From an uncultured bacterium (GTDB lineage: Bacteria > Margulisbacteria > WOR-1 > O2-12-FULL-45-9), in contig CAZMPJ010000008.1 of NCBI GenBank assembly GCA_964568455.1, positions 1,143 through 65,142 on the forward strand: a stretch of DNA of 64,000 bases. The letters are read 5' to 3'. A model generated the notes under the pieces. It saw only the letters and a program-made list of their open reading frames with translations. It did no database searches and had not been told where the DNA came from. The translations under genes and the position numbers were made by a program. Shown here piece after piece: positions 7,394-62,203 of this stretch (position 1 is its first letter; each line of letters begins with the position of its first letter).

Positions 7394-7770
7394 TGCGTTG
7401 TCATTTAATAATTATAGTGCTAGCGGTTTTCGTGCTCTCTGCCTGTTCATCTCCTCAAGAAGAAATAATTATTTCAGAAGAAAAAGAAGAAACAACAGAA
7501 ACAGTTCAGCCTTCAAGAGAAGCGGTTTATGTTTATAACCAGCAGCCAGAAACCAATTCTAAACAAATCACTTTAAAAATAAACAACGAAGCCCTTTTGA
7601 TGGCCGAAGGAAGTATGCGACTTTTAGGAGTGGTGGTAGGTGGCAGGAAGAAAGAAGTGCTACTAGAAGTAGCGGGGGTGGGGCGTTTTTTTGGTGAGGG
7701 AGACCGGATTCAGGGTTACCGATTAATCAAAATCAATCAATCCCAAATCATATTAGAAAAGGAGTTATAA
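7393..7770 (+). CDS. Small lipoprotein, possibly a PilP/GspC-like secretin partner
   Basis: Has a lipobox (VLSAC). It shares a TAATG overlap with the upstream gene and lies directly before the secretin. The functional call is weak. Confidence 0.5.
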   Translation: MRCHLIIIVLAVFVLSACSSPQEEIIISEEKEETTETVQPSREAVYVYNQQPETNSKQITLKINNEALLMAEGSMRLLGVVVGGRKKEVLLEVAGVGRFFGEGDRIQGYRLIKINQSQIILEKEL

Positions 7771-8916
7771 ATGAAAAAAGTTTTTTTGGCTGTGCTGCTG
7801 TTTTTCTGCTTGTTTACCCCTCTTGAAGCTGAAGAAATCATTAAAAAGATAGAGTTTGCTGATGCCGCGGTTTTAGATGTGGTGCAAATTTTAGCTAAAC
7901 GAGCCAGTATTGATTTAGTTATTTCCGGTGATGTTGGTTTAATCCAGTCTAAGCGTGCGACTATTAATTTGAAAGATATTACTGGCAGCCAGGCAATCGA
8001 ATATATTTTGCGTACCAATGATATTAATTATGAAATAAGAAAAGGAGCGATCTTAATATCTTTAGATCTTAACCAGGATAAAGGCAAGATAGAAACAGTT
8101 TATTTGAAATATTTAGCCGCAGATAAGGTTTGTGAATTAATTGAAAAGGTAATCCCCAGCATTAAAACTACGGTAGGTGGTAGTGCTAACGCAATTGTTT
8201 TAAAGGGGAAAATTCATCAAATTGAGGAAGCGAAAAATTTAATAGAATCTGTTGATCGACCTGTTCCGCAGATTTTAATCGAAAGCAAGGTTTTGGAAAT
8301 TTCAAAATCAGATTCCACCCGCTTTGGCGTTTCTTATGGTTCTTCCCCAGGTGTAATTCAATTTATCACTGACAAAAACACAAGAAAAACTGCGTTAGCC
8401 CATGATATAAGCACTACGGTGACTGGATTAATTTCTGATGGCAAAGCAAAAATAATTGCCAAGCCCAGGATTGCAACGCTGGATAACCACGAGGCGATTA
8501 TTAATATTGGCAGCCGTATACCTTACGCGGTTCCAGTAACCAATAGTTCTAATTCAATTACCTGGACAGTGGATTATATTGATGCTGGAGTAAAGCTTAA
8601 AATTACGCCCATGCTGGGAGAGGAGGGCTATATCACCACTGCTATTCAGCCTGAAGTTTCTTCGATATCAGAATGGAAAACCACGGCAGCTGGAGAATTC
8701 CCGGTTATTTCTACTCGTAATGCTCAGGCTACTTTAAGGGTGAAAGATGGGGAAACCATTGTAATTGGTGGCTTGCTGTCAGAAACTGATCGTAAAAATG
8801 TTTCTAAATTACCTATTTTAGGCTATTTACCCATAGTTGGTTTCTTGTTTCAAAACGTAACCATTGAAAAAGCAGAAACAGAAATTGTGTTTATGATCAC
8901 TCCGTATGTTATTTAG
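7771..8916 (+). CDS. Outer-membrane secretin (short, STN-type N-terminus)
   Basis: Has a signal peptide, an STN-like IEFADAAVLDVVQILAK...DLVISG, and a C-terminal secretin core: TLRVKDGETIVIGGL...VSKLPILGYLPIVGFLFQN...TEIVFMITP. Confidence 0.85.
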   Translation: MKKVFLAVLLFFCLFTPLEAEEIIKKIEFADAAVLDVVQILAKRASIDLVISGDVGLIQSKRATINLKDITGSQAIEYILRTNDINYEIRKGAILISLDLNQDKGKIETVYLKYLAADKVCELIEKVIPSIKTTVGGSANAIVLKGKIHQIEEAKNLIESVDRPVPQILIESKVLEISKSDSTRFGVSYGSSPGVIQFITDKNTRKTALAHDISTTVTGLISDGKAKIIAKPRIATLDNHEAIINIGSRIPYAVPVTNSSNSITWTVDYIDAGVKLKITPMLGEEGYITTAIQPEVSSISEWKTTAAGEFPVISTRNAQATLRVKDGETIVIGGLLSETDRKNVSKLPILGYLPIVGFLFQNVTIEKAETEIVFMITPYVI

Positions 8917-8918
8917 GA

Positions 8919-9596
8919 TTAATTAGAAACAATCTTAACTTTTCCCAGCATTCCCATCTGATCGTCTTTTAAGATTAAAACCCCGTCCAAGCCTCTGATT
9001 TTCTTGGCAAATTTTAAAGCCTGGTCAATATCTGAAGAGTCTTTTATTTGGTTGCCAATAGCAGTAGCTGCAGCATCAGCTAAAAAAGCATTTCTAGCAA
9101 TCACGGTTACTGCGTCAGCCTTGCCAAAGTTAAAAGCGTCTTCTCTGTTTCCGGATGAAGTGCAAACTGCGAAAGGTTTTTCTTGTGGTTCTATTTCTAA
9201 AGCAATTTTACCGGAAAAAGGTGAGCCATCTGCATAGATGATAACTTTTCTTTTTTGATTGGTTTTAATAAAAATATCTCCACCATTTTCAACAATCAAC
9301 TCATTACTATAAGGTAACAGGTCTTTGCCTACTGTTTCAGCCAAAGCGCCGCCAAAAGTAGCCATGGAGCTAACTTTTAACTTTTTTGAGATTTTATGCA
9401 TTTCTTTGACCATGGCAGAGGCCTTTTCTTTTTCCCCTTCAATTTCATCGCGGTGGTTAAGTAAAGATTCTAGGGCTTTTTCGTAAAAATTGCCTTCAGC
9501 CAGAATCAAAAGGTCGGTTTCCTTCTCAATTACTTCAAAGCGGACCAAATCTTCTGCTTTAACGCGATTATGTAAGACCTTGTCTTTATAATTCAT
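8919..9596 (-). CDS. UPF0280 family protein (ApbE-related)
   Basis: The pattern ETDLLILAEG...CTSSGN...FGKADAVTVIARNAFLADAAATAIGN matches my memory of UPF0280. Confidence 0.65.
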   Translation of the reverse strand: MNYKDKVLHNRVKAEDLVRFEVIEKETDLLILAEGNFYEKALESLLNHRDEIEGEKEKASAMVKEMHKISKKLKVSSMATFGGALAETVGKDLLPYSNELIVENGGDIFIKTNQKRKVIIYADGSPFSGKIALEIEPQEKPFAVCTSSGNREDAFNFGKADAVTVIARNAFLADAAATAIGNQIKDSSDIDQALKFAKKIRGLDGVLILKDDQMGMLGKVKIVSN

Positions 9597-9625
9597 ATAA
9601 GCATTATAACAGATTTACAAAATAT

Positions 9626-9655
9626 CTGAAATTTTTTGCTTAACTTATCGATAAT
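9626..9655 (+). promoter_or_regulatory. Orphan-regulon promoter-like motif, copy P2
   Basis: Reads CTGAAA-ttttttgcttaacttatc(18)-GATAAT, ending 8 nt before the ATG at 9664, with no SD. Confidence 0.45.
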
Positions 9656-9663
9656 TATTTGGT

Positions 9664-10467
9664 ATGAAAGTAACAACTAAACCAGTAAGAGTAATAGTTA
9701 GACAAACTAAAGCTGAAGTGGTGCAGTTTGGTGCCAGAAAATTTGCTGATGTCATGAAGGCCAAGCCTGACTTTGTTGGCGGAGTTGGCACTGGCAGTAC
9801 GCTGGAATCTTGCGGCCGCGAAATAGTAGCTTTAAAGCAAACAGAAGGCATTGATGTTTCCCGCGTCCATCTTTTTGGCTTAGATGAATACCTTGGTTGG
9901 CGTCCTATTGATTTTGAAAGATCATATACCTCTATTTTATGGAACCTCTATTGCCGAGGTATGGGGCTGCCGATTACAAATATGCACTTGCCTTATTGGA
10001 ATACTCAATATCCTCAAATGACCTGTGCCATACTTGAAAATGAAATTGACGAAGCTGGCGGCATTAACCTCCAATTATTAGGCTTAGGTGTTAATGGTCA
10101 TGTTGCTTTTAATGAGCCTGGGGTAGATCCGGCCTTAAAAACCCATGTTGAAGCACTTAGTCAAATAACCAGAACGAGAAATTCAGTCGGGTTTGATACT
10201 CTTGTTCCAGAGCGAGCTATGACACAAGGTATTGCCACTATAAGAAGAGCTACAGCGCTATTATTAATGGCTTATGGAGCAGAAAAAGCTGATGCTGCGC
10301 AGGCCATGTTATTTGCTCCACCCAGCCGGGATTGGCCAGCTTCTTTACTAATGCCTCATCCAGACTTAACAGCAGTATTTGACCTGGAAGCAGCAAGCTT
10401 GTTCCCCACGCCGTATAATCAAGAGGGTGATTACGAGGTAGATTGGCCATGCCAGCATACCGGTTAA
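9664..10467 (+). CDS. Glucosamine-6-phosphate deaminase / 6-phosphogluconolactonase superfamily protein
   Basis: Contains GVGTGSTLE, LFGLDEY and GLGVNGHVAFNEPG motifs. Confidence 0.75.
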   Translation: MKVTTKPVRVIVRQTKAEVVQFGARKFADVMKAKPDFVGGVGTGSTLESCGREIVALKQTEGIDVSRVHLFGLDEYLGWRPIDFERSYTSILWNLYCRGMGLPITNMHLPYWNTQYPQMTCAILENEIDEAGGINLQLLGLGVNGHVAFNEPGVDPALKTHVEALSQITRTRNSVGFDTLVPERAMTQGIATIRRATALLLMAYGAEKADAAQAMLFAPPSRDWPASLLMPHPDLTAVFDLEAASLFPTPYNQEGDYEVDWPCQHTG

Positions 10468-11840
10468 CCAATGTTGGCCAACATATTGCGCAGAGACTTT
10501 GGGATCCCCAATACATTAAAAAGCAAGGCACTGTAAAAGTGGTTAATTCAAATAGTGTTTTTATTATTTCGCCTAGGACATTTGCCGCGTCTACGCTAGC
10601 TTCCCAGTTAAAGATTCAATATACTAGTCCAGAATTTCTCGCAGCCATGGATATTATGAAGGAAGCATTATTTTCTGGAGCAATAAATGATGGAAGCGAA
10701 GAATTAAATTTAGGTCTTTTTAATCAAATGCTTGAAAGTGGATTGTTTGTTGAGGGGACAAGGTTAGGAGAAGAGCCTAATCCAATTGAGTCTATAAGAG
10801 TAATTAACTTTCAGGTAACTTTAAATTGCAACTTAAGCTGTCTTCATTGTAGCAGAGGCAATGCCTCAACAGAACATGAACCAATAGCAAGAGATGTTTT
10901 AGCTGATGCCTTGGAGCAGGCGTACTTAAGCAATGCAATGTGCTCCTTTGCTGTTAATGGTGGGGAGCCAACCTTATTTAAAGGGGATTTGTTTTGGTTA
11001 TTTAAGTTTGCAGCTACTTTAGGGGTTGTTACCCAATTTGTTACCAATGGATGGTGGGGGGATAAACAAGATTTTACTATTTGGGGGCACAAGTTTAAGA
11101 ATGCAGGCGAATTTACTGATAAATTAAGGGCTATTGCGCCGATGTTTGTTCATTTTAGCTTGGATGGGACAGAAGCAATTCATGATCATTTGCGTCAAAA
11201 ACCAGGTAGTTTTAATTCTGCCATTGCTGGGATCAAGGCTGCGCGAGAATCAGGGTTAATTGTAAATACTAATACAGTTAAGCATCCAGATTTAGAAAGC
11301 TTTGAGGACTTGATGAATTATTTAGAAGCTAATTGCGGGTTAAACCCTGATCCTCGTGAGATGAATTTATCTGCGATGGTAAGGACAGGTCAAGCAGCGA
11401 ATAATTTTCCAGTTACTGATCCGATTTATGAAGAAGAATATTTGGACGGGTGCAAAGGCTTTTATTCTCCCACAAATTTGGTTATTGGCTATGATGGCAA
11501 ATTGGGTAGTTGTGGGGTTGCTAGCACTTATGGTGAATTTGGTGATTTAAAAATCCAAACCATGACTGAAATTTTAAATGGCATTCAGGAAACAGCTGCT
11601 TATCAATTACATGTTGGTAAAGATTTGAAGCCGCATCTTCACCTTTTGCCAGAAGATATTTTCCCAATACGCTATAGTAATCCTTGTGAAATGTGGATTC
11701 CTTTGACCATGATTGTAACTAAAATTGACCAAGAAGAAAAAAGGCTTGGTAGGAAATTGTTTCCACAAGAAATCCGGGCTATTCAAGAATATGTGGGCTG
11801 GAGGACGATGTTGGGGAAGTCAGAGAACCCCTTTAGTTGA
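10443..11840 (+). CDS. Radical SAM enzyme with a ~125-aa N-terminal extension
   Basis: Has the CNLSCLHC (CX3CX2C) cluster motif and a GGEPTL SAM-binding motif. Its C-terminal half is Cys-containing. It overlaps the preceding gene by 25 nt. Confidence 0.8.
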   Translation: MAMPAYRLTNVGQHIAQRLWDPQYIKKQGTVKVVNSNSVFIISPRTFAASTLASQLKIQYTSPEFLAAMDIMKEALFSGAINDGSEELNLGLFNQMLESGLFVEGTRLGEEPNPIESIRVINFQVTLNCNLSCLHCSRGNASTEHEPIARDVLADALEQAYLSNAMCSFAVNGGEPTLFKGDLFWLFKFAATLGVVTQFVTNGWWGDKQDFTIWGHKFKNAGEFTDKLRAIAPMFVHFSLDGTEAIHDHLRQKPGSFNSAIAGIKAARESGLIVNTNTVKHPDLESFEDLMNYLEANCGLNPDPREMNLSAMVRTGQAANNFPVTDPIYEEEYLDGCKGFYSPTNLVIGYDGKLGSCGVASTYGEFGDLKIQTMTEILNGIQETAAYQLHVGKDLKPHLHLLPEDIFPIRYSNPCEMWIPLTMIVTKIDQEEKRLGRKLFPQEIRAIQEYVGWRTMLGKSENPFS

Positions 11841-12446
11841 GGGAATTCCTTTTTTTCTTGGATTAATTTTACAAGCCCGTCTTAGCGCTACACCAAAAGC
11901 TTTAAAAATTGCTTCAACTTTATGATGAGTGTTTTTACCTCTAACTAATTCTATATGCAGGGAAATGCCAGCTTTATAAACAAAAGCTTCAAAAAATTCC
12001 CGCAGCATTTCGCTGTCCAGTTCCAACTTTATCTTCTCTTTACCAATTTCAGCATAAATCAATTGTTTGGCAAAGCGAGCTTTAAAAGTAAAGTGGGGGC
12101 GGCCGGAGATATCCAGGGCAGCTTTGACATCAGCTAGTGATTCATCCATAGGAATAACCGCATGGCCGTAGCGTTCAATCTTTTCTTTTTTACCCAGAGC
12201 TTTTTTGAATGCTTCGCCCAATGCTAGTCCGGTATCTTCTACTAAATGGTGCAGATCAATTTCTAAATCGCCTTTAGCTTTTAAATTTAAATTAAATAGA
12301 CCGTGTTTGGCAAATAAATCAAACATGTGGCTAAGAAAAGGAATAGGATAATCAATATTTCTTTTCCCAGTACCGTCAATGTTTAATTCAATCTTAATAT
12401 TGGTTTCTTTGGTTTTGCGGATGACTTTGCTCTTGCGTTTTTTCAT
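11820..12446 (-). CDS. hisB: Imidazoleglycerol-phosphate dehydratase
   Basis: Contains [30 protein letters not shown] and [12 protein letters not shown]. Confidence 0.95.
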
Positions 12447-13477
12447 TTAAACAATACCTCTTGATCTTTATTTTTATCTTTTTTTGGCTTTAAACCAATA
12501 TGTTCATATGCAGCAGTAGTAGCTGTTCTTCCCCTTGGAGTTCTTTCAATAAAACCGATTTGCAGCAAATATGGTTCATAAACATCTTCCAAAGTCAGTG
12601 GATCTTCATGAATGGAAGCGGACAAAGTATCAACCCCCACTGGGCCGCCGGCAAATTTCTTAATAATTGCGGAAATAATTTTACGATCAACATTATCTAG
12701 ACCCAATTCGTCAATTTCTAGACTGGCTAAGGCATTACTAGCAGTTTCCTGATCAATATCGCCTTGGGCTTTAACTTGAGCAAAGTCGCGCACTCGTCTT
12801 AAAAGACGATTAGCAATCCTAGGGGTGCCTCTTGATCTTTTGGCAATCTCGGTTGCACCTTTTTCATCAATTTTAATCTTTAAAACCTGGGCTGCGTGAA
12901 TAATAATCTGCTTAATATCTTTAGCAGAATAAAATTCTAAACGGCTAAGCATACCAAAGCGGTCACGAAGTGGGGAGGAGATTTGTCCAGCTCGGGTAGT
13001 GGCGCCGATTAAAGTAAATTTTGGTAAATCTAATCGAATTGATCTGGCACTAGGGCCTTTGCCAATCACAATATCTAAGCCAAAGTCTTCCATGGCCGGG
13101 TAGAGCACCTCTTCTACTACGCGGTTTAAACGATGGATTTCGTCGATAAATAAAACATCGTTGGCTTTTAAATTAGTTAGGATTGCAGCTAAATCTCCTG
13201 GTCGCTCAATAGCAGGGCCAGAAGTAATTTTTAAATTTACGCTCATTTCATTGGCAATAATGCTGGCCAGTGTGGTCTTTCCCAGTCCTGGCGGACCATA
13301 AAACAACAAATGTTCCAGGTTTTCGCCTCTTCCTTTGGCTGCATCAATGTGGATTAAAAGATTATCAATGATTTTTTTCTGGCCGATAAAGTTTTTAAAG
13401 GTTTTTGGCCGTAGACCTTCAAATTCTTGGTCTTCTTTGTCTCGGCCTGATTTAATAATGCGTTCTTCAGCTGCCAC
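12443..13477 (-). CDS. ruvB: Holliday junction ATP-dependent DNA helicase RuvB
   Basis: Contains [32 protein letters not shown] and IGATTRAG. Confidence 0.97.
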
Positions 13478-17951: not shown

Positions 17952-17981
17952 TATATCGACATATTTGGGGTGAAATTTCAG
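17952..17981 (-). promoter_or_regulatory. Orphan-regulon promoter-like motif, copy P3
   Basis: On the minus strand it reads CTGAAA-tttcaccccaaatatgtc(18)-GATATA. A 20-nt leader (tatatagaggggagagtatc) then precedes the ATG at 17931. Confidence 0.45.
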
Positions 17982-19970: not shown

Positions 19971-20000
19971 TTTATCGGTATATTTGGTGGATAATTTCAG
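19971..20000 (-). promoter_or_regulatory. Orphan-regulon promoter-like motif, copy P4
   Basis: On the minus strand it reads CTGAAA-ttatccaccaaatatacc(18)-GATAAA, ending 5 nt before the ATG at 19965. Confidence 0.45.
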
Positions 20001-27536: not shown

Positions 27537-27566
27537 TATATCGTAATATTTAGTAGTTAATTTCAC
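27537..27566 (-). promoter_or_regulatory. Orphan-regulon promoter-like motif, copy P6
   Basis: On the minus strand it reads aaataaaGTGAAA-ttaactactaaatattac(18)-GATATA, ending 7 nt before the ATG at 27529. Confidence 0.45.
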
Positions 27567-29883: not shown

Positions 29884-30309
29884 GGGGCTGTAAGGGCTTT
29901 GACGGGAAGTATTCGACCTTAAGTTGCGAGTCGAAGACGCTAGTCAATCTTCGTTAATTATTACTAGCAAACGTCATAAATGCAGACGAAAAACAAGCAG
30001 CTAGAGTAGGCGGGAGAAGCGTACAGGATCTGATGGATCTTTGTTCCGCTCCAGCTGAAATGGCATTAGCTGTTTAATTAATTAAACGGCTCGTCTCCCA
30101 ATCTTTACCGAAGGGGTTGGGGTCAGACGTTATTTTTCGGTTACACAATCAGCTTTTTCTGTTTGGCTGGTTGCTAAGCTAAAATATCAGATAGCGCAGG
30201 TGCTTTCCTTGCTTCGGGATAAACCTGGGTGAAATTTTAAAAGAAGCTACACTCGTAGAGATTTAAGCGCCGGCCTTTTCGGACAGGGGTTCGACTCCCC
30301 TCGGCTCCA
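29884..30309 (+). ncRNA. ssrA: Transfer-messenger RNA (one-piece tmRNA)
   Basis: The 5' GGGGCUG pairs with the 3' CGGCUCC-A to form an acceptor stem containing the G3:U wobble. A T-arm GGGGTTCGACTCCCC is present. The internal tag frame starts at GCA AAC (29967) and ends ...GCA TTA GCT GTT TAA (stop at 30075-30077). smpB lies 0.7 kb upstream. CCA is not encoded. Confidence 0.9.
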
Positions 30310-30320
30310 TTGTTTTATAT

Positions 30321-41050: not shown

Positions 41051-41080
41051 GTGAAATTTCTGGCCAAAAGTGTCTATATA
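41051..41080 (+). promoter_or_regulatory. Orphan-regulon promoter-like motif, copy P7
   Basis: Reads aagaaaaaGTGAAA-tttctggccaaaagtgtc(18)-TATATA. A 37-nt leader with AAGGAG precedes the ATG at 41118. Confidence 0.45.
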
Positions 41081-41117: not shown

Positions 41118-41624
41118 ATGAGTTACGGACAAATAGGTGGGGTAGGTAATACATCAGGATTAGTGTGGCAATTTTTGAAGTCAGATGGCGGCACCTCAAA
41201 AGAAATTAAATATACTACTCTTACATATACTCATCCTATGGGGACATTAACAATTGCTTTCCCCAAGGGAACACATGTTCCGCAAGAGATAAGAGACATG
41301 GTCTGGAACTGTTCCGACGAGGCAAAAAGAGGAATCCCACAGAATAGGCCTTGGCGGGTTATGATTAGAATATCTGTTCAAAAAGATAAATCAGGAGAAA
41401 TTGTTGAATGGCAGATATTTTCTTCTTGCGCTTATACCTCTTCTGATGGCCAAGAAAAAAGAATTACGGGTAAGGATATGATACAAAAGTGGACTGGTGA
41501 GGCAATTGGCTCGGCGACTTCAAAGAAATACATAGCAAGGCTTCAAGAGGGTGTTAAAGGTGGAGTGTTATGTCACATCGTCCTCCGTGAGTCATTGCGT
41601 TGGCCTGATTTCAAGAAAAAGTGA
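41118..41624 (+). CDS. Orphan protein (168 aa)
   Basis: An ORF with a good SD. I recognise no family. Its last codons and stop (aag aaa aag TGA) are part of motif copy P8. Confidence 0.6.
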   Translation: MSYGQIGGVGNTSGLVWQFLKSDGGTSKEIKYTTLTYTHPMGTLTIAFPKGTHVPQEIRDMVWNCSDEAKRGIPQNRPWRVMIRISVQKDKSGEIVEWQIFSSCAYTSSDGQEKRITGKDMIQKWTGEAIGSATSKKYIARLQEGVKGGVLCHIVLRESLRWPDFKKK

Positions 41625-41650
41625 AATTTTCACTAAAAAGTGTCGATATA
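41621..41650 (+). promoter_or_regulatory. Orphan-regulon promoter-like motif, copy P8
   Basis: Reads aagaaaaaGTGAAA-ttttcactaaaaagtgtc(18)-GATATA. The surrounding ~45 bp are a near-duplicate of copy P7. Confidence 0.45.
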
Positions 41651-44524: not shown

Positions 44525-44554
44525 GTGAAATTTTTCAGGAGAATGGACGATATT
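44525..44554 (+). promoter_or_regulatory. Orphan-regulon promoter-like motif, copy P9
   Basis: Reads GTGAAA-tttttcaggagaatggac(18)-GATATT, ending 5 nt before the ATG at 44560. Confidence 0.45.
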
Positions 44555-44559
44555 TGAGT

Positions 44560-47262
44560 ATGGGTATGACTAATCGAAAGATAATGGACATAGCTCCTTT
44601 GCGTAAGATCTTTCCTGCTCGGGCACATGATCTTATAAATCAAGTACAAGGATTGCATACAAACCTGGATTTGCCCGGCCTTTGCAGGGTAGTTAGTGAC
44701 TTGCAAAAAATAAGACATCATCCAGCGGTTTTAATTCCTTTATATGAAATTATCTGTTCTGTGGCAAATCAAACAAGGCAATATACGCACGCAACAGAAT
44801 TTGCCTTACGCATAATGAGCTTAGGCAAAGGCGATGTGCTTACATCTGCCACTGCGCTTTTAGAGCGAGCTAGTTTGCAGTATGGGGAATTAGGTGGTGA
44901 CGATCAATTAGAAATAACAAGACATTTTCATAAATATTTAAGGGGTGCGGGAAATTTTGCTAAATTGCAGGATCTTTCGGTAGACCTGCAGGCTAGTTGG
45001 GCAATTATATTTACTCTCATTTTTCCTAAACAATACTTGTCAGAGCAAATAATTCTAATTGAAAATACTTTTGTTGGAAGTGATAGCAGAAAAAGAAAAG
45101 CAGGAGCCGCAATAACCTATATCAGCTTAGCACGCAGAATTTTTTCTATTGAAAGAAAACCTATAAAAATAGCAAAACTCCGCTCAATGGCTGAATATGT
45201 TTTTGCAAATGAACCAGAAGCCGTAATTGATCCAGAGAGATGTTCTGAAGAATATTTTGATGATCTTATAGCAAGCTTGGCCCGCTTTGATTTATTTGAT
45301 TTGGTTGACCAGGCTATGCAAATACGTGACCCCGAACCTAATTTAGCCATACATTTATATGTTGGTTTATTAAAAATACTACAACAGGATCTAAAAGTTG
45401 CTTATGTGGAAGATTTAAAGCTTGAAGGTCAAATTCGGTCAGCCAGCATGTCTGATGTATTAAGGGCGGAATTTAGTTTGTTATCTACAAGGATAGCAAG
45501 AGATTATATGGAAAGCATAAAACGCCCCCACGCAGAGTTTGAGCTGGGTTTTGAGCCGTCGAATTATTTTGAAAGAGCTTTTTTGGCTCCACTATCTGAT
45601 TGCCCTCAATTAGTGGCTGGAATAGTTGCTTTACGTCGAAGTGTATTAGTAGAATTTGGTAAAGCAGTATCAAGGCCAAACTATTTTGTTACTGAGGCAA
45701 GCGCAAAAAACGTTTTGGGGGTTAAGCTTTTACGGGCAAATATAGTGCAGCTGCCTGGCTCAACCAAGCTTGAAGTGTATGTTTTTAATGAACAAGAAAC
45801 TGCTTGTGCAAAAGCCTATTTTATTTTAAAGCTTAATGTGAAAGGTGAGGTATGTGGAATTGAGCCTCAACTCTATCTTGAAGGGGTAAAGCCCAGAGAC
45901 CGCCAAAACATAATACTTTTTTGGGAATATATAACCTTGGCGTTGTTAGCAGGAAGCCGCTTATATGAAGATACTGATGGTGAGGTGGAAGAAAGCGATC
46001 TTGATCTTCTAGCAGGCGAAATTTATGAGTTTTCAAAAAAAATTGCCTTAAAAGAAAACTTTGCTGCTTTTCAAACTATTGAAGAGGGTTTTGTTGAAGA
46101 AGAAAAATATCGCGAAAAAGAAGTTGATCTTAATAACTGCTATCGCTTGGCCAGAATGATTTTTGAATCTTTTATAGAACAAGTAACTCCAGCAACTTAT
46201 GCGCTATCTGAGCAAGACTTTTTAGCTGATATTTTTACTTCAATTACTTTTATAGACCCCAAAGATTTAGAAAAGGTTTCTGATGATGTAACTATAAGAC
46301 AAATTTTAGCTGATCATGAAAATGTTGAAGCAGCCAAGTTCCCTTTTATAGTTGTTTTAAAAGATAAGGCCGGGTCAGATATTATAATTCAAGTTAAAAG
46401 TGCTGATGAAATAAATGTATTAGGCTCAAGAGGCGAAAGGATTAATGCCTTATTGCAAAAATATATTCTGGAGCTCGTTTTTGGTGCTAGCGCTAAACGG
46501 TTGGCAAGAACAAAAACTGGAGCTGGTCAAGGAGCGATAATTTTTGATGAAACAGAAGAGGCTGCTGGGCCAGAGCAGGTCTTAAGAAATGTTTATCAAA
46601 GAGAATTTTTAAAATTAGTTGATCAGAAAGGTATTTTTGCTTTTCCTTGGCTTTATACTGAATCTGCCGGCAGAGATGATGTTTTATTTTATCCATTTGA
46701 AAACCAGGATGTTGCAGCCAAAAGAAACTTATTTGAAGAAAGAGATGGTAGAGAAATATTTGTTCAGATAGAGCCTTTTGGTTCGATCAGAGTATTACCA
46801 GTTTCAAGAAGAAAAGGAAAAGGCGGCGGTTGGATTTTTAGGCCAAAAGACAGAACAACTCTTCGCGAACGACAAAAGGAATTATTAGCAGATAGCAGCC
46901 CTTTTCCAGCATTTTATCGGCTTTATATTAAAACTACTTTCTCGAATGAAGAGGGCAATGAATCTGTTCAGATTATTACTCCTTATGCTTTGCGGGAAGA
47001 TGAAGATGAAATATGGTCAGATGATGTTTTGGGTAGGTTGGAAGCTGAAATCGCACAAGGGGAACATAAGGCTGACCCAATAAAATTATTAAAAGGAACT
47101 TCTGGTGAGCGCAGAAGGAAGCTTGAAGCCAGAATTCAATCCGGCGAGCTCACAATAGTAGAACAGACAACAGAGATTTTTGAAATAAACACTACTTATC
47201 ATCGGCCTAAAATGGTTAGTTTAGCGGAGTTGTTGGAGCAAGGTTGTGAGTTGGAGAGATAA
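44560..47262 (+). CDS. Large orphan protein (~900 aa), paralogue of 57489-60068
   Basis: A long ORF, collinear with the 859-aa protein. Examples: FDLFDLVDQAMQIRDPEP vs FDQLDYADQAMVIRQPET, and C-terminal INTTYHRPKMVSLAELLEQGCELE vs LNTTFKRPTMERLSDLLEQGYTLE. Confidence 0.7.
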   Translation: MGMTNRKIMDIAPLRKIFPARAHDLINQVQGLHTNLDLPGLCRVVSDLQKIRHHPAVLIPLYEIICSVANQTRQYTHATEFALRIMSLGKGDVLTSATALLERASLQYGELGGDDQLEITRHFHKYLRGAGNFAKLQDLSVDLQASWAIIFTLIFPKQYLSEQIILIENTFVGSDSRKRKAGAAITYISLARRIFSIERKPIKIAKLRSMAEYVFANEPEAVIDPERCSEEYFDDLIASLARFDLFDLVDQAMQIRDPEPNLAIHLYVGLLKILQQDLKVAYVEDLKLEGQIRSASMSDVLRAEFSLLSTRIARDYMESIKRPHAEFELGFEPSNYFERAFLAPLSDCPQLVAGIVALRRSVLVEFGKAVSRPNYFVTEASAKNVLGVKLLRANIVQLPGSTKLEVYVFNEQETACAKAYFILKLNVKGEVCGIEPQLYLEGVKPRDRQNIILFWEYITLALLAGSRLYEDTDGEVEESDLDLLAGEIYEFSKKIALKENFAAFQTIEEGFVEEEKYREKEVDLNNCYRLARMIFESFIEQVTPATYALSEQDFLADIFTSITFIDPKDLEKVSDDVTIRQILADHENVEAAKFPFIVVLKDKAGSDIIIQVKSADEINVLGSRGERINALLQKYILELVFGASAKRLARTKTGAGQGAIIFDETEEAAGPEQVLRNVYQREFLKLVDQKGIFAFPWLYTESAGRDDVLFYPFENQDVAAKRNLFEERDGREIFVQIEPFGSIRVLPVSRRKGKGGGWIFRPKDRTTLRERQKELLADSSPFPAFYRLYIKTTFSNEEGNESVQIITPYALREDEDEIWSDDVLGRLEAEIAQGEHKADPIKLLKGTSGERRRKLEARIQSGELTIVEQTTEIFEINTTYHRPKMVSLAELLEQGCELER

Positions 47263-47265
47263 GGC

Positions 47266-48183
47266 ATGCCCCTAATTAAACCTTTTGCGCAACTGCCACT
47301 GATGAAGATCAGAAATGTTAAAGTTGATCTTCCTTTAAGTCGAAGAGTTAGTGTTGTCCGCTCAACTGGCATCCCAGCTAAAACTGATCCAGCTCATTTT
47401 GTGCAAACCATGCTGGACTGGGAAGCAAGAATGGGTACAACACATGCGGTGTTAGCAGGCATGATGCTTATGACTGGCACAGCTGAAGTTGATGATGTAA
47501 TTGATGGATTTGAAACCTTTCACCGCATTTATGACAAAGTAGCTCCTTTTATGCAAAACTGCACGCTGACGGAACTAGAACGATTTACAACTTTCTTAAA
47601 AGGTAAATTAAATTTTGCTCCTTTTTATCCTGACTTTTACCTTGGTTTAAAAAGTTTTGAAGCTAATTTAGATGGAGCGGATAAGATAGTGGGGGATTGT
47701 GTTGTTTGCGCGGCAATATATGATTTGCTTTATTCCCAGGCTGGAGGGATAGCTGGGGCAGGCTTTAGAGTTATTGATTTGCATACAAGAGCTTATTTGC
47801 CAGATTTAAATTATAATTTTGAAATTGGCAGCGACGAGCAACCACAAGAGTATTTACGCTTTAAACCAGTTCAATCTACTACACCTTATCTTTTTAGTAG
47901 TATGTTTTCTTTTTTAACCGTAGCTTCTTTGTTGTCAATTATTATGTTTGTTAGAGTGGAGACAGGAGGAAAAGCAAATTACAAGTTACTTTCTGCAGAT
48001 AAGCTTGCTTTTCTCATGAATTGGCTTGAGTGCGCTGAAGCCATAAACCCATATCATATTTGCATTTATTTTAACAAAGAAAATGTTTATGAAGCGACGG
48101 GGAAAAAAGGCGAAGCGGCTTTGCAGGGAACAGTTGTTGATGAGTTGATGGGCTTTGTTGGTCAGCAGATTATAGTGGCTTAG
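47266..48183 (+). CDS. Orphan protein (305 aa) with one predicted TM segment
   Basis: It starts 3 nt after the 900-aa gene's stop. It has a hydrophobic stretch, LFSSMFSFLTVASLLSIIMFV. I recognise no family. Confidence 0.6.
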   Translation: MPLIKPFAQLPLMKIRNVKVDLPLSRRVSVVRSTGIPAKTDPAHFVQTMLDWEARMGTTHAVLAGMMLMTGTAEVDDVIDGFETFHRIYDKVAPFMQNCTLTELERFTTFLKGKLNFAPFYPDFYLGLKSFEANLDGADKIVGDCVVCAAIYDLLYSQAGGIAGAGFRVIDLHTRAYLPDLNYNFEIGSDEQPQEYLRFKPVQSTTPYLFSSMFSFLTVASLLSIIMFVRVETGGKANYKLLSADKLAFLMNWLECAEAINPYHICIYFNKENVYEATGKKGEAALQGTVVDELMGFVGQQIIVA

Positions 48184-56820: not shown

Positions 56821-57449
56821 AAATTAAAATAGCACCGTCAATCTTGTCAGCTGACTTTAGTAATTTAGAAAAAGAAATTAAAAAAGTTGAAAAAGCTGGC
56901 GCCGATTATATTCACATTGATGTAATGGACGGCCATTTTGTACCTAATATTACCATGGGGCCGTTGGTGGTTAAGGCGGTTAAAAAATGCAGCAAACTTC
57001 CTCTTGACGTACACTTAATGATTGAAAACCCGGATAAATATATTGAATCTTTTGCTAAAGCCGGAGCAGATATTATTACCATTCAAGTTGAGGCTTCTAC
57101 TGATATTACCAGAGACATTGAGTTAATTAAAAAGCATGGAGCTAAACCCGGACTTGTGGTTAACCCGGAAACTGCGATTGATAAAGTTTTTCCTTATCTA
57201 GATAAAATTGATATGGTTTTGGTTATGTCAGTTCACCCGGGATTTGCAGGGCAAAAGTTTATGGCAGAGGTTTTACCCAAGATTAAGCAGCTTAGAGAGA
57301 AAACTGATATTGAGATAGAGATTGATGGTGGAATTAGCTTAGAAACCGCGCCTTTGGCAATCCAAGCTGGCGCCAATGTTCTAGTGGCCGGATCAGCCAT
57401 CTTCTACAGCAAGGATTATAAGCAGGTTATCAAGCAGTTAAAAGCCTAA
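56814..57449 (+). CDS. rpe: Ribulose-phosphate 3-epimerase
   Basis: Contains IAPSILSADF, HIDVMDGHFVPN, VHPGFAGQKF and DGGI motifs. The start is TTG. Confidence 0.95.
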   Translation: MVKIKIAPSILSADFSNLEKEIKKVEKAGADYIHIDVMDGHFVPNITMGPLVVKAVKKCSKLPLDVHLMIENPDKYIESFAKAGADIITIQVEASTDITRDIELIKKHGAKPGLVVNPETAIDKVFPYLDKIDMVLVMSVHPGFAGQKFMAEVLPKIKQLREKTDIEIEIDGGISLETAPLAIQAGANVLVAGSAIFYSKDYKQVIKQLKA

Positions 57450-57453
57450 TTAT

Positions 57454-57483
57454 CTGAAATTTTCCAAATTTTATCCCGATATT
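57454..57483 (+). promoter_or_regulatory. Orphan-regulon promoter-like motif, copy P11
   Basis: Reads CTGAAA-ttttccaaattttatccc(18)-GATATT, ending 5 nt before the ATG at 57489. Confidence 0.45.
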
Positions 57484-57488
57484 AAGGC

Positions 57489-60068
57489 ATGAAAGTAATG
57501 CCTATTTTTATTGCAAATGCCCGGGCAAATTTTGCTAATGCCTGTGGCAGAAGCGATTTTTCTACTGCCTTGAAGAATATTAGGTTGATAGAGCGAGGCG
57601 CAAGACATCTTCAGCCAAATGAAGTTGCCAGACATTTTAGGGATTTTACTAAACTTTGTTTGGATCATGGTAATAAAGGAAGGTATGCTTTCCAGTTTGC
57701 TGTTAAAGCTTATCGTCGGGCAGCTCTGCCAGAAATAAGGGTTGAGGCAGTAGAAATGTTGCTGGCTTTGGCTGATAGCTGTGCTCAACATAAAGAGATT
57801 GCTGAGGAACTTGGGCCACAATTTGATCATTTAATTGGCAGCTCTCTTAAACAAACGATTCACACTATGACAAGTGAAGAAGCGGAAGAGTGGTTTAGAG
57901 TTGTTGATACCTTAGACCGTAACACTTATCATGTTGAGCAAAAATTACTGATTGAGGTTTTTTTGCCAACCATGGCAGCAGGCCAACCAAGAGCTGAAAT
58001 TGCTTCTCGCCATCTTGAAACGTCAATGTGGGCAGAGCGTTTTTATAATGTAGAGGCTGACCACGAAAAAATAGCTGCTAGTGCAAAAATATTTGTTGAA
58101 GAAGGGCAAGCTGTTATTGAGGCTTATTCAAGTGAAGCTTTTTTTATGATGATCGCTACGCTTAATTATTTTGATCAACTGGATTATGCAGACCAAGCCA
58201 TGGTTATACGACAACCAGAAACAACGGATCCAGTGCAATACTTGGTTGAATTGGCCAGAGGCAGACGCGATGACCTTGAAGCGGCTTTCCAATCATTAAA
58301 AGGCAGTAGTAGTAGATACGAAACACTTTCACAGCAAATAATCAGAGAAATCAGTGCTGTCCAGATCAAAATTGCTGGCGAATATCTTGATCAACGCTTA
58401 AAAGATCAACCAGCTATGTCCCAAACACCGTCTTGGCGCGCTCGTTTGTTATATCAACCGCTAAATTCAGATCAAGCTCTAAGCGAAAAACTTTTTGATT
58501 ATTTAAGAGCGCTGCTTAAACTGCATGCCGAGCCAGTACGTAAGCTAGCGCCTTTTTGGGTTTATTTAGAATTGCTGATCAAGGAGAAGCTGACTGCTGC
58601 TTATATTGTTTATTTTCCTTCTAGACATGAATTTGTTGTTTATTTTGATGATAAGGGTGACAACCGCTGGATAAAGGTGGTCTTTCCAACAGATGGAAAA
58701 GGCAAAGAAGAAGTATTTGTAGCAACCCCTGGAAATGAAGCGCAAGTTGGCACCATAATGCAAGCGGCCAAGCTTTTGGCTAGTTCAGAAGCTGAGATAT
58801 CTGCGCAGGTTAAGGGTAAATTAACTACTTTGGTAGAAAAAGTAAGCAAGGAGTTAGTCTGTGCCGCGCGTAGATTGTTTGAGAAGGAAAACAGTAATCT
58901 TTATAAGACTTTTGCTATTGTTTTAGCTGATGACCAGCGACTGCAAGACCGAGTGGTTGAAATGCACAATCGCTTGCATCTGGCGCGAAACATTTTTACA
59001 GCCTACCTTAAACAAATAGAGGAAGAAACTTATGAGTTACAATCAGATGATCTTTTAGCTCAATTAATCAAATCAATTGCTTTTTATCCTTTTGAAAAAT
59101 TGGCTCAAATGAAAAACCAAGGCCAGCTTGGCGGATTGCTGCCACAAAAAGATGGGAAATACCCTTTTGTTGTAGGCCTTAAGCCGGAAGCTAATGAAGC
59201 AAAAGAAATATTATTAGTTGTTCATTCTCCTCAAAAAATTGTAGTTCCTGGTCATGGACAATTAAGTGGCGTGGAAGCTGAATTTGTTTATGATTTAATT
59301 TATGAGGCAGCTGTAAAATTATCAATTAAAACAGCTGCGGAAAGTTTACAGCAAACGGGGTACCTGTTTAAAAGAGATATCGAGGCAGCAAAAGGGTTAG
59401 CCAAACTAAAAAGAATTAATGCTCATTATTTTAAAACTGAAATGGCTAAAAGGGGGCTTTTGGCTTTTGATTGGTTTACTTATGAGCCAATAGGAGATGA
59501 CGGCCTTTATCATCCTATCCCAGATCAGGGCGAAGAAGTTAAAAGAGCTTTGTTTGCTGAAGGGAACTTGGATGAAATTTATGCTAAAACAGAAATAGAA
59601 GGATTAGCCATGCTTCTGCCTGTGCGAAAGAAAAAAGTAGAAGGGAAAATCATCTTAGCTCCTTGGGAGCGTCAGCTTTTGCGTGAAGAGCAACAAAGGA
59701 TACTTGGGGACACTCGTGTTTTGCCTGTTTATTATGGTCTTTATATTTTGACTTATTTTTCTGATGGTAAGGCCCATGCTTTTAGGTATTTGATTAAGGC
59801 AACTGAGGCAGAAATTTTAAAAGATGATTTAATTGCTGATGTTGAGAAACGGTTGGCAGACGGATTTTTCCATGATCCAGAAATTTTCTTAAAAGGGACT
59901 TCTAGACAAGATCGCGCTTTGCTTGAAGCAGAATTAGCTAGTGAGCAATTAACTATTTTGGAGCAGGAAGTACAGGTTTATAGGCTAAACACAACATTTA
60001 AGCGTCCTACAATGGAGAGGTTAAGTGATCTTTTGGAGCAGGGCTATACTTTAGAGCCACAAGGATAA
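57489..60068 (+). CDS. Large orphan protein (859 aa), paralogue of 44560-47262
   Basis: A long ORF, collinear with the ~900-aa protein (see that entry). I recognise no family. Confidence 0.7.
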   Translation: MKVMPIFIANARANFANACGRSDFSTALKNIRLIERGARHLQPNEVARHFRDFTKLCLDHGNKGRYAFQFAVKAYRRAALPEIRVEAVEMLLALADSCAQHKEIAEELGPQFDHLIGSSLKQTIHTMTSEEAEEWFRVVDTLDRNTYHVEQKLLIEVFLPTMAAGQPRAEIASRHLETSMWAERFYNVEADHEKIAASAKIFVEEGQAVIEAYSSEAFFMMIATLNYFDQLDYADQAMVIRQPETTDPVQYLVELARGRRDDLEAAFQSLKGSSSRYETLSQQIIREISAVQIKIAGEYLDQRLKDQPAMSQTPSWRARLLYQPLNSDQALSEKLFDYLRALLKLHAEPVRKLAPFWVYLELLIKEKLTAAYIVYFPSRHEFVVYFDDKGDNRWIKVVFPTDGKGKEEVFVATPGNEAQVGTIMQAAKLLASSEAEISAQVKGKLTTLVEKVSKELVCAARRLFEKENSNLYKTFAIVLADDQRLQDRVVEMHNRLHLARNIFTAYLKQIEEETYELQSDDLLAQLIKSIAFYPFEKLAQMKNQGQLGGLLPQKDGKYPFVVGLKPEANEAKEILLVVHSPQKIVVPGHGQLSGVEAEFVYDLIYEAAVKLSIKTAAESLQQTGYLFKRDIEAAKGLAKLKRINAHYFKTEMAKRGLLAFDWFTYEPIGDDGLYHPIPDQGEEVKRALFAEGNLDEIYAKTEIEGLAMLLPVRKKKVEGKIILAPWERQLLREEQQRILGDTRVLPVYYGLYILTYFSDGKAHAFRYLIKATEAEILKDDLIADVEKRLADGFFHDPEIFLKGTSRQDRALLEAELASEQLTILEQEVQVYRLNTTFKRPTMERLSDLLEQGYTLEPQG

Positions 60069-60073
60069 TAATT

Positions 60074-61069
60074 ATGAGTGTTCACTTTGTAGAAACACCA
60101 AAAGCTGGAGTGGTTAAACCACCCAAGCGTAAAACAGTTAAGCAAAAAAAGTGGGAAATCAAGCAAGTATTGGATTTCGCTGATTTTTTGATCTTGCGTT
60201 GTTATTTTGACAAAGCGGAAAAACTTTTAAAAAAGATTTTAAAAAAATATCCCCAATCTGCTTCACTTTGGTCAAAATTAGGCTTGGTTTATTTAAAGCA
60301 ATATAAAGGTGCAGAGGCTAAAACAGCTTTTGAAAAAGCCAAGTATTATAACCCCAATCAGGTAGAAGCACTTTATCATTTGGGAAATATGAATGAAAGC
60401 CTAATACAAGTTGACCAAGCCTGCCGATTGACCCAAGACCCTTATTATCTTGGCTTATGCAATTGTTATTTTAAAGAATTACCTACTGCGTTTGAGGCTT
60501 TTGTTAAAGGCTATGAAATAAACTTAGGAACCGATCATCCAGGCTTAATGCAATTTGCACTTGAAACAGTACAACTCTATTTAACCACAGCTAATGTGGC
60601 CAGCGAGTTAAATTTTAAAGAGGCTTTTGCTGGAGTTATAGAGCAGATGAATAAAATGATTAGTTTTGCCAATAAGCATTTTAGAGGAAAGAGTAAAATA
60701 AAATTGATTGCCAAACATACCTCTTCTAAAAAGGCCTTTGCTAGGTTACTTTTAGCTGCTAAATCAATTTGTGAAGAAGCCATACGAGATAACTGTCGCA
60801 ACGAATCTGCCCATTATAATTTGGGCATGATTTATTTTGTGCAAGAAAAATATGAGCAAGCAAGAAAATGTTTTGAGCGAACAGTGGAGCGGAATCCTAG
60901 ACATGCTTTTGCCCATTTGCAGTTAGGCTTTTTAAGTCTTATCGAAGAAAAAACAGAAGAGGCAGAAAAGCATTTTAGACAAGCCCATAAATTGTTTAAA
61001 GAAGGTGGGATGGAGAAAATGTTTCTTGAAAAATACGAGATTTTAAAGGATGGGATTAAAGAAGAATAG
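60074..61069 (+). CDS. TPR-repeat protein
   Basis: It has several 34-aa TPR-like units (e.g. WSKLGLVYLKQYKGAEAKTAFEKAKYYNPNQVEALYHLG and HYNLGMIYFVQEKYEQARKCFERTVERNPRHAFAHLQLG). It starts 5 nt after the 859-aa gene. Confidence 0.65.
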   Translation: MSVHFVETPKAGVVKPPKRKTVKQKKWEIKQVLDFADFLILRCYFDKAEKLLKKILKKYPQSASLWSKLGLVYLKQYKGAEAKTAFEKAKYYNPNQVEALYHLGNMNESLIQVDQACRLTQDPYYLGLCNCYFKELPTAFEAFVKGYEINLGTDHPGLMQFALETVQLYLTTANVASELNFKEAFAGVIEQMNKMISFANKHFRGKSKIKLIAKHTSSKKAFARLLLAAKSICEEAIRDNCRNESAHYNLGMIYFVQEKYEQARKCFERTVERNPRHAFAHLQLGFLSLIEEKTEEAEKHFRQAHKLFKEGGMEKMFLEKYEILKDGIKEE

Positions 61070-61105: not shown

Positions 61106-62203
61106 ATGTGGTCTAAAGACGATATAAAATTTATGCAGGAAGCTCATGCTTTGGCAATATCTGCTGAAGGGAAAACCACGCCTGATCCTATGGTAGGCGC
61201 GGTTTTGGTTAAAGCAGACCGCATTATTTCAGTCGGTTACCACGGTGAAATTACTACTCCTCATGCTGAATCCTGGGCCATACAAAAAGCAGGTAAAGAC
61301 GCCCAAGGCGCAAAACTTTATGTTAATCTAGAGCCTTGCTCTCACTTTGGTCATAACCCACCTTGCGCTGATCTAATCATTGCCTCTGGCATTAAAGAAG
61401 TAGTTGCTTCAATGAAAGATCCTAACCCTTTAGTTAGAGGAAAAGGCTTTGCTAAGCTGCGAAAACATGGGGTAAAAGTAAAAATCGGGCTTTTAGAAGA
61501 AGAAGCCAAAAAATTAAATGAAGTATTTATGAAATTTTTTACCAAGAAGCTGCCTTTTGTGGTTTTAAAAGAAGCCATGACCATTGATGGTAAAATTGCT
61601 ACTAAAACCGGCAACAGCCGCTGGGTTTCTTCTAAACAAACCAGGAAATTTGCTCATGAGTTGCGCAATATTTACGACGCTATTCTTTGCGGGATAAACA
61701 CGGTTTTAATTGATGATCCTAAATTAACTGCCAGATTAGTAAAAAGGGCGAAAAACCCTATTCGCATAGTTTTAGACGCGCATGCTAGAACTCCCTTGAA
61801 TGCTAATGTATTAAAAGTGAAAAGCGCGCCAACTATTATAGTGGTGGGGCCCAAAGCTCCACGGAAAAAAGTAAGGGCCTTGCAAAAAGCCGGCGCAGAA
61901 ATAATTTATGTTCCTGCGCCTAAAGGCAGAATTGAAATAAAAACCTTAATGAAAAAACTGGCTAAGATGAAAATTACCAGTGTTTTGATTGAGGGGGGTG
62001 GGGAGGTAGCCGCCTCAGCTTTGACTGCTAAAATAGTTGATAAGGCCTACTTTTTTATTGCACCAAAGATATTTGGGGGGCGAGAAGCTAAAACTGGGGT
62101 GGAAGGCGAGGGTGTTCGTTTTCCTTCACAAGCAATTAATCTTAAAAAAGTTGAAGTTTCAAACTGCGGTCCAGATGTTTTGATTTCCGGATATTTTGAT
62201 TAA
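61106..62203 (+). CDS. ribD: Bifunctional riboflavin biosynthesis deaminase/reductase
   Basis: Has the deaminase HAESWA...PCSHFGHNPPC zinc motif, then the reductase domain (TIDGKIAT, LIEGGG). Confidence 0.93.
   Translation: MWSKDDIKFMQEAHALAISAEGKTTPDPMVGAVLVKADRIISVGYHGEITTPHAESWAIQKAGKDAQGAKLYVNLEPCSHFGHNPPCADLIIASGIKEVVASMKDPNPLVRGKGFAKLRKHGVKVKIGLLEEEAKKLNEVFMKFFTKKLPFVVLKEAMTIDGKIATKTGNSRWVSSKQTRKFAHELRNIYDAILCGINTVLIDDPKLTARLVKRAKNPIRIVLDAHARTPLNANVLKVKSAPTIIVVGPKAPRKKVRALQKAGAEIIYVPAPKGRIEIKTLMKKLAKMKITSVLIEGGGEVAASALTAKIVDKAYFFIAPKIFGGREAKTGVEGEGVRFPSQAINLKKVEVSNCGPDVLISGYFD

Follow-up and report, generated by a model that had tools for sequence, protein, structure and literature searches.

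Between rpe and ribD in a 64,000-nucleotide (nt) stretch of DNA (the window, to which all unlabelled coordinates refer) lies a locus in which the gene for a large orphan protein is closely followed by one for a TPR protein. The large gene occupies positions 57489 to 60068 of the forward strand, encodes 859 amino acids (aa) and ends with a TAA stop codon at 60066-60068. The TPR gene, on the same strand, begins after a gap of 5 nt and runs from 60074 to 61069, encoding 331 aa; both genes were taken from the open reading frame (ORF) listing, and Pfam TPR models recognise the second. A Shine-Dalgarno-like AAGGA for the TPR gene is found at 60061-60065 (forward strand), within the last codons of the large ORF and 8 nt before the ATG at 60074. 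In front of the large gene we observed a promoter-like motif, TGAAAT-N16-CGATAT(T), at 57455-57483 on the forward strand, with the letters TGAAATTTTCCAAATTTTATCCCGATAT(T), which is followed by 5 nt (AAGGC) and then by the ATG at 57489. The upstream flank is rpe, encoding ribulose-phosphate 3-epimerase (56844-57449), and the downstream flank ribD (61106-62203), both on the forward strand and identified on identical public contigs by the Pfam models Ribul_P_3_epim and by dCMP_cyt_deam_1 and RibD_C, respectively. The rpe gene is the last of a conserved stk-PASTA-rpe cluster, and the close neighbours of the TPR gene are rpe, ribD and hydG/hydE-like genes. In overall GC content (GC) and in that at third codon positions (GC3), neither gene departs from what is typical of the window.

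A paralogous locus lies at 44526-48183, also on the forward strand. Here the motif (44526-44554) is likewise followed after 5 nt by an ATG, at 44560, which opens the gene for a 902-aa protein (44560-47262), and this in turn is followed by a 305-aa ORF (47266-48183). The two upstream sequences, cTGAAATTTTCCAAATTTTATCCCGATATTaaggcATG before 57489 and gTGAAATTTTTCAGGAGAATGGACGATATTtgagtATG before 44560, have the order TGAAAT-N16-CGATAT(T), 5 nt, ATG in common. The 859-aa and 902-aa proteins are paralogues, with 28% identity over 761 aa (BLASTP, E=5e-65), and in both loci the downstream ORF begins 3-5 nt past the stop codon. An earlier account of the window made from the letters and ORFs (the sequence-only reading) had described this arrangement, and our analysis agrees with it: the same architecture as a first module at 44525-48183, a paralogous large protein, a motif copy 5 nt before the ATG at 57489 and a second gene coupled to the first at 5 nt from its stop, encoding a 331-aa TPR protein with a basic N-terminus, the whole set between rpe and ribD. 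The spacing of the motif is also, as it had proposed, compatible with a leaderless mRNA, the -10-like GATATT ending 5 nt before the ATG. It had further suggested that a conserved scaffold pairs with interchangeable adaptors. On balance, and with moderate confidence, we favour a different picture, in which the conserved unit is the large gene alone and its pairing with the TPR gene is recent and local rather than a conserved two-part system.

Gene content of the orthologous loci

We examined 12 genomic contexts of the family (loci of relatives carry L labels, and family proteins P labels). Each examined locus holds exactly one member by the family hidden Markov model (HMM), and 11 other loci either lack the partner gene or carry a different one. 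An orthologue of the TPR gene was found solely in L001, the nearest relative, where the slot between rpe and ribD contains a 359-aa gene, the large gene (63% identity), a 387-aa TPR gene and two genes of 630 and 647 aa. In L097, L098, L089 and L100 (41% identity) the order is rpe, an FHA gene, the large gene and, 12 nt on, ribD, with no TPR gene. In L093 and L094 (27% identity) it is rpe, a 497-aa reverse-strand gene, the large gene and, 7 nt on, ribD. The orthologues of the other paralogue, in L090 (56% identity) and L092 (37%), lie between dapF and a convergent queD-like PTPS gene and have no partner. A homologue of the 305-aa 'partner' does occur in L092, split into two adjacent ORFs of 112 and 132 aa, and it lies ~5 kb upstream of the 884-aa orthologue (L092 4293-5067) rather than adjoining it. 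Family synteny is conserved down to 27% identity. Both paralogues are old, and each keeps to one core-genome position, dapF|queD or rpe|ribD. The proposal of a conserved scaffold with interchangeable adaptors is not supported by this comparison, nor is that of a two-gene operon conserved in relatives.

The rpe|ribD junction itself varies. It is empty in most relatives, with rpe directly followed by ribD in L011, L012, L013 and two Marinamargulisbacteria (L078, L086); in L008 it carries an ADP-ribosylglycohydrolase-like gene and a 515-aa reverse-strand gene instead (10683-13191), and in the clade of the window it holds two to five genes including the orphan family. No flanking repeats or transposon-like borders of the rpe-ribD insert were found. 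The junction is a variable slot that tolerates lineage-specific cargo in Saganbacteria, which weakens any guilt-by-association of the large gene with the adjacent stk-PASTA genes.

In the window the two genes form a tight pair, with a 5-nt gap, a Shine-Dalgarno site within the upstream ORF and no promoter-motif copy between them; the 470 nt upstream of 60074 contain no copy with fewer than four mismatches. In L001 a 46-nt gap precedes the TPR gene and holds an exact copy of the motif, TGAAATTTCCTACACAAATCGACGATAA (L001 12590-12617). Independent transcription of the TPR gene, which the sequence-only reading had itself named as evidence against the coupling, is what this copy indicates in the closest relative, where it would provide a separate promoter. 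The TPR protein has also diverged about twice as fast as its neighbour (31% against 63% identity between the window and L001), and the L001 protein lacks the basic N-terminus. The TPR gene appears as a fast-evolving, lineage-specific neighbour. Given a probable promoter of its own in L001 and no such copy in the window, the simplest reading would be that it was once an independent transcription unit and joined that of the large gene when the spacer was lost in the window lineage.

The 331-aa protein is clearly a TPR protein (Pfam TPR_2, 70.3 bits against a cut-off of 27, E=5e-20; TPR_1, 62.3 against 27.8, E=2.5e-17; TPR_17, 55.6 against 24.4; further TPR models also exceed their cut-offs), with two TPR blocks at residues ~36-120 and ~230-310. 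Its lysine-rich N-terminus contains KPPKRKTVKQKK and its isoelectric point (pI) is 9.24. The PDB matches are generic TPR proteins (consensus TPR, SPINDLY/OGT, Cdc27, PEX5, PilF and MamA), and in PADLOC we observed weak, generic TPR-type matches only (E 1e-4 to 2e-3). The suggestion that it may be a class II secretion chaperone found no support in the NCBIfam models, where it reached 28.3 bits against a cut-off of 104.8 for LcrH_SycD (TIGR02552), 28.1 against 70 for SctY and 21.3 against 170 for CdsG. Like the class II chaperones of type III secretion systems (T3SS; SycD/LcrH/IpgC), it is a TPR protein encoded immediately downstream of a large protein, and the two would be co-expressed. Those chaperones are ~160 aa long, whereas the partner here has 331 aa and two separated TPR blocks; none of them is among its top 60 PDB matches, and the pairing is not conserved in the orthologous loci.

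Two further features of L001 concern the genes around the pair. The 359-aa ORF, as called, opens with an exact copy of the motif (L001 8886-8913). Because exact copies occur there and before the TPR gene, the island genes of L001 are probably separate transcription units, and the 359-aa gene has probably been called too long at its 5' end. We considered the 359-aa protein as a kinase and regard this as unproven, since the match (E=2.2) covers the catalytic-loop region only and there is no BLAST similarity to the kinase of the window. The 630-aa and 647-aa orphans that follow the TPR gene (L001 13778-17613) are weak paralogues of one another (27% over 131 aa, E=1e-10), with no Pfam match above threshold and no counterpart in the window.

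The distant members of the family are found in other surroundings. In L088 a MopE/SNase-like gene follows 58 nt downstream; in L099 the member lies between clpB and lemA, and in L091 it precedes a PAS/GAF histidine kinase. In L096 the 896-aa P0020 (region 7092-12179) separates an nfnA-like gene (DHODB Fe-S binding) from a gltD/NfnB-like one; the two genes of such a pair are normally neighbours, which gives P0020 the look of an insertion into an operon.

The large protein and its family

In an AlphaFold2 model of the 859-aa protein, built from a 30-sequence alignment (mean predicted local distance difference test, pLDDT, 87.7; predicted template modelling score, pTM, 0.70), residues 1-345 are predicted to form an all-helical, TPR-like solenoid and residues 346-859, ~515 aa, to form alpha/beta domains. 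The second part is modelled as a small beta-sheet (356-400), a long helical hairpin (439-506) and two more alpha/beta units with a disordered loop between them (619-633). The most conserved region of the family lies here, in the C-terminal ~220 residues (640-856). Full-length Foldseek searches were dominated by helical-repeat matches, all to the N-terminal part, where TPR/PCI/alpha-SNAP-type solenoids were matched with probabilities of 0.9-1.0 and E-values of 6e-3 or worse; the family profile also matches designed consensus TPR proteins. The modelled solenoid resembles the TPR/alpha-solenoid scaffolds that gave the best of these matches (PCI-domain eIF3a and Rpn, LGN/Pins and alpha-SNAP/Sec17). 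It differs from them in the modest E-values and in query-normalised TM-scores of 0.21 or less, no family member reaches any Pfam TPR model, and the 515-aa C-terminal region has no counterpart in the scaffolds.

When residues 345-859 were modelled separately (pLDDT 80.9, pTM 0.70), Foldseek found nothing significant in the PDB, where the best E-value was 0.36, or in BFVD, where the best match had E=0.026 and a probability of 0.38. Searches with a profile of this region returned no match, and C-terminal pieces found nothing in Pfam at E<=10. We considered WGR, Pur-alpha, RqcH and the Pol IV little finger as folds for this region and rejected them, with Foldseek probabilities of 0.33 or less and no Pfam domain at that threshold. 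No internal duplication of the C-terminal domains was detectable (hhalign probabilities of 1.6% or less). Few residues are invariant, most of them structural (Leu, Gly or Pro); the polar ones are D521, Q735, D741, T755, Q826 and T836, and we saw no sign of a known catalytic motif among them. The protein is acidic (pI 5.8) and shows no obvious signal peptide or membrane segment in sequence or model, judged by eye and without a dedicated predictor.

When 1.84 billion representative proteins were searched exhaustively with a HMMER profile, 39 clusters were found, 28 of them with E<1e-30, and full-length members range from 840 to 1143 aa. In this search the family was absent outside Saganbacteria and Margulisbacteria. 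Every member that bears a name is called a hypothetical protein; the sources given are candidate division WOR-1 (OGC30706.1), Ca. Margulisbacteria (MBU0687825.1) and an unclassified 'bacterium'. The rpe of the window is 72-73% identical to that of metagenome-assembled genomes (MAGs) of Candidatus Saganbacteria (WOR-1), and the best matches of its stk, ribD and hydG are also to Saganbacteria MAGs. Saganbacteria and Margulisbacteria are uncultivated sister lineages of Cyanobacteria known from metagenomes only (PMC6349859). Word-indexed homologue searches returned the protein itself and one 63% relative, and a 30-sequence profile added none; a scan of GTDB species representatives with family patterns found none, and a metagenome scan with a narrow alignment gave a single locus, from a lineage already known.

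Neither the 859-aa nor the 902-aa protein matched a family in Pfam, NCBIfam or PADLOC at E<=1, PHROGs gave no match for the large proteins at E<=0.1, and PDB sequences gave no hit (best phmmer E=0.76). A Pfam scan of 30 family members added only one domain, in the distant member P0022, which carries a C-terminal NOV_C domain (PF13020, PD-(D/E)xK-type) at residues 984-1070 (E=4e-16). In P0027 the C-terminus is extended by ~200 aa that no model recognises and in which a D...EMK-like motif was seen by eye. We also found no relatives of the large protein in IMG/VR, a phage genome collection or the PLSDB plasmids. With these results, the typical composition, the lack of flanking repeats and the lack of PHROGs matches, we rejected a phage, plasmid or other mobile origin; the large gene is a resident chromosomal gene of the Saganbacteria/Margulisbacteria clade. 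The protein belongs to no described family and is new in kind in that limited sense, an uncharacterised family without a match rather than a demonstrated new mechanism. Large, confidently foldable and present as two ancient paralogues at fixed core-genome positions, the family is a good target for structural genomics and for lineage-specific cell biology, an interest tempered by the frequency of conserved hypothetical proteins in candidate phyla.

The promoter motif and the translation start

Allowing one mismatch, the consensus TGAAAT-N16-CGATAW has 11 matches in the window against 1.12 expected, a number reached in none of 100 shuffles; the exact pattern TGAAAT-N16-CGATAT has three against 0.25. 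The motif is in this way ten-fold enriched across the window. Copies of the consensus lie on the forward strand at 9627-9654, 41052-41079, 41622-41649, 44526-44553 and 57455-57482, and on the reverse strand at 17953-17980, 19972-19999 and 27538-27565. Exact copies are placed just 5' of ORF starts on the matching strand at 9627, 41622, 44526 and 57455 (forward) and at 17980, 19999 and 27565 (reverse). The motif can be parsed as a sigma-70-type promoter, with a -35 element xTGAAA, an 18-nt spacer and a -10 element GATAWW, which at 57455 become (c)TGAAA, 18 nt and GATATT. The consensus is as similar to promoters of the extracytoplasmic function (ECF)/sigma-W type (TGAAAC-N16-CGTA) as to those of the sigma-70 type. 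We take it to be the genome's general promoter signal, which does not single out the module.

At least four ATGs (9664, 19965, 27529 and 57489) stand 5-8 nt beyond the end of a -10 element, and other copies of the motif are followed by a leader of at least 20 nt with a GGAG-type Shine-Dalgarno site. The copies close to ATGs elsewhere in the window suggest that probable leaderless starts are common in the genome and do not mark the module, and leaderless genes may be common in this Saganbacteria-like genome. The motif is kept at the equivalent place upstream of the orthologues in L001, L090 and L092, at 5-7 nt from the ATG. It is weaker upstream of those in L088 and L091, the latter with a 23-nt leader between motif and gene. 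The large gene of the WOR-1 lineage (L089, L097) instead overlaps the upstream FHA gene by 4 nt, and leaderless expression would therefore not be universal in the family.

Leaderless genes have been described in Deinococcus and Mycobacterium (PMC4007540, PMC3898074). The arrangement here is similar in having a -10-like hexamer 5-7 nt before the start codon with no usable Shine-Dalgarno site between, and several other genes of the window are alike in this respect. It differs in the -35-like TGAAAT with its fixed 16-nt spacer to CGATAW, a lineage-specific consensus. The locus is a clean example of the lineage promoter consensus and of probable leaderless expression, which would be useful for the annotation of gene starts in MAGs of these bacteria.

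The public gene calls place the start of the large gene at a second ATG, 57498, giving a protein of 856 aa (P0001). The start at 57489, and with it the label 'leaderless', is what we infer rather than an observation. A hairpin at 57485-57503, AGGCAUgaaaguaAUGCCU followed by a U-run, spans both candidate start codons (-8 kcal/mol, z=-2.5) and could form only in read-through transcripts from rpe. We rejected it as a regulatory element, as it is not conserved in L001 (-3.1 kcal/mol) or at the paralogue.

The conserved unit and alternative explanations

In the picture that we favour, the large gene alone would encode a cytoplasmic protein of ~860 aa with an N-terminal TPR-like alpha-solenoid and a C-terminal alpha/beta region. 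Expression of each paralogue would start from a separate copy of TGAAAT-N16-CGATAT, the general sigma-70-type promoter of the lineage. Since 5-7 nt separate the -10 element from the ATG, transcription probably begins at or beside the start codon and gives a leaderless mRNA. In the window, where the spacer is gone, the TPR gene would be co-transcribed with the large gene through read-through and translated from the Shine-Dalgarno site in the last codons of that gene. The acidic large protein would then act as a protein-interaction scaffold rather than an enzyme, and the basic TPR protein (pI 9.2) would be a dispensable accessory that may bind it. The scaffold role is our best guess, and a tentative one that is more probably wrong than right.

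Several points weigh against this account. The TPR gene is kept beside the large gene in both of the closest lineages, which allows for a real functional link. Public gene callers favour a start at 57498, where an AAGG lies 10 nt ahead of the ATG, and it is from sequence that we deduce the transcription start site, the lack of a leader and the continuation of the transcript into the TPR gene. The word 'scaffold' is the default reading of a TPR-like domain joined to an uncharacterised region; the C-terminal region may instead be enzymatic or bind nucleic acids, and its lack of a fold match holds for the PDB and BFVD only. The comparison rests on 12 genomic contexts.

A two-gene module, in which a conserved large subunit is served by interchangeable adaptors (the TPR protein here, the 305-aa protein at the other copy) in the manner of a secretion substrate with its chaperone, or of a defence or sensor module, would explain why both paralogues have an ORF 3-5 nt past the stop and why the TPR gene has stayed beside the orthologue in L001. 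TPR proteins do include the class II T3SS chaperones, and the sub-threshold LcrH_SycD match fits with this. However, no specific partner follows the orthologues in L090, L092, L093/L094 and L097/L098, L092 has its homologue of the 305-aa protein at an unlinked place, and the TPR orthologue of L001 has its own copy of the promoter motif. The LcrH_SycD score falls far below its cut-off, no T3SS chaperone appears among the top 60 PDB matches, and no signal peptide or transmembrane segment was seen in the sequence or model of the large protein. The defence version of the idea fared no better, as no PADLOC model matches the large proteins. We consider such a module improbable, and its failure in the comparative test guards against the over-reading of local gene pairs. 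At the other extreme, the TPR gene may have no functional relation to the large gene, with rpe|ribD a permissive spot and the 5-nt coupling an accident of genome compaction. The differing cargo of the slot among Saganbacteria (the L008 pair, five genes in L001, FHA and large genes in L097, the 497-aa reverse-strand and large genes in L093) and the roughly two-fold faster evolution of the TPR protein are in keeping with this; nevertheless, in both lineages where the TPR gene occurs it comes right behind the large gene, and we regard a complete lack of relation as quite improbable.

The large protein could be a cytoplasmic scaffold or substrate of a PknB-type Ser/Thr kinase pathway for cell-wall synthesis and division, with the FHA and TPR proteins as lineage-specific adaptors. 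Both paralogues lie in one ~17 kb stretch rich in envelope genes (dapF, murI, an Amidase_3 amidase, a PMT_2 glycosyltransferase, stk and a PASTA-protein gene), the Amidase_3 amidase has an AMIN domain in L001 and L092, and in the WOR-1 lineage the first 4 nt of the orthologue are shared with an FHA-domain gene. In L001 the 359-aa ORF that precedes the large gene has a kinase-like catalytic-loop motif, a match that is not significant (E=2.2). As in the Gram-positive PknB/PASTA kinase-FHA modules, the large gene is found near stk, a PASTA-protein gene and rpe, and one lineage has it in translational coupling with a tandem-FHA gene. Unlike in those modules, related genomes can have the kinase cluster and not the family: the ancestral stk-PASTA-rpe-ribD cluster of L011, L012 and L013 lacks it, and the adjacency may therefore be a coincidence of the insertion site. 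Other members also occur in unrelated contexts (nfnA-like/gltD-like genes in L096, ClpB/LemA in L099, the PAS/GAF kinase in L091). A kinase-pathway role is unlikely, though it is the best placed of the alternatives. The same low standing applies to a broader version, in which the family would be an essential, cytoplasmic hub specific to Margulisbacteria and Saganbacteria, with a ~515-aa C-terminal half of unseen fold, acting for example in envelope or division control downstream of a PknB/PASTA kinase and recruiting lineage-specific FHA/TPR adaptors. Least probable of the explanations we weighed is that the family binds nucleic acids or is a defence-type sensor, with a TPR-like sensor domain and a nuclease effector fused or supplied in trans. 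The NOV_C domain of P0022, the 200-aa extension of P0027 with its D...EMK-like motif and the C-terminal Foldseek matches to WGR, Pur-alpha, the Pol IV little finger and RqcH point this way, but those matches all have E>0.3 and low probabilities. Neither an NTPase nor any other effector domain was recognised in the window protein by Pfam or NCBIfam; in particular, it has no NACHT/NB-ARC P-loop NTPase and no PADLOC match, unlike the STAND/Avs-type TPR defence sensors. The family's core-genome site, with synteny across deep divergence and no mobile-element relatives, is also not that of a variable defence island.

Two observations stand beside these. The tandem-FHA gene with its 4-nt overlap with the orphan start is found at L097 8369-9004 and L089 9282-9977, directly after stk-PASTA-rpe in the WOR-1 RIFOXYB2_FULL_48_7 lineage, and this coupling is a lead towards a possible link to phospho-signalling. 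Elsewhere in the window, a tmRNA gene lies at 29884-30312 (Rfam RF00023, 150 bits), with the tag peptide ADEKQAARVGGRSVQDLMDLCSAPAEMALAV.

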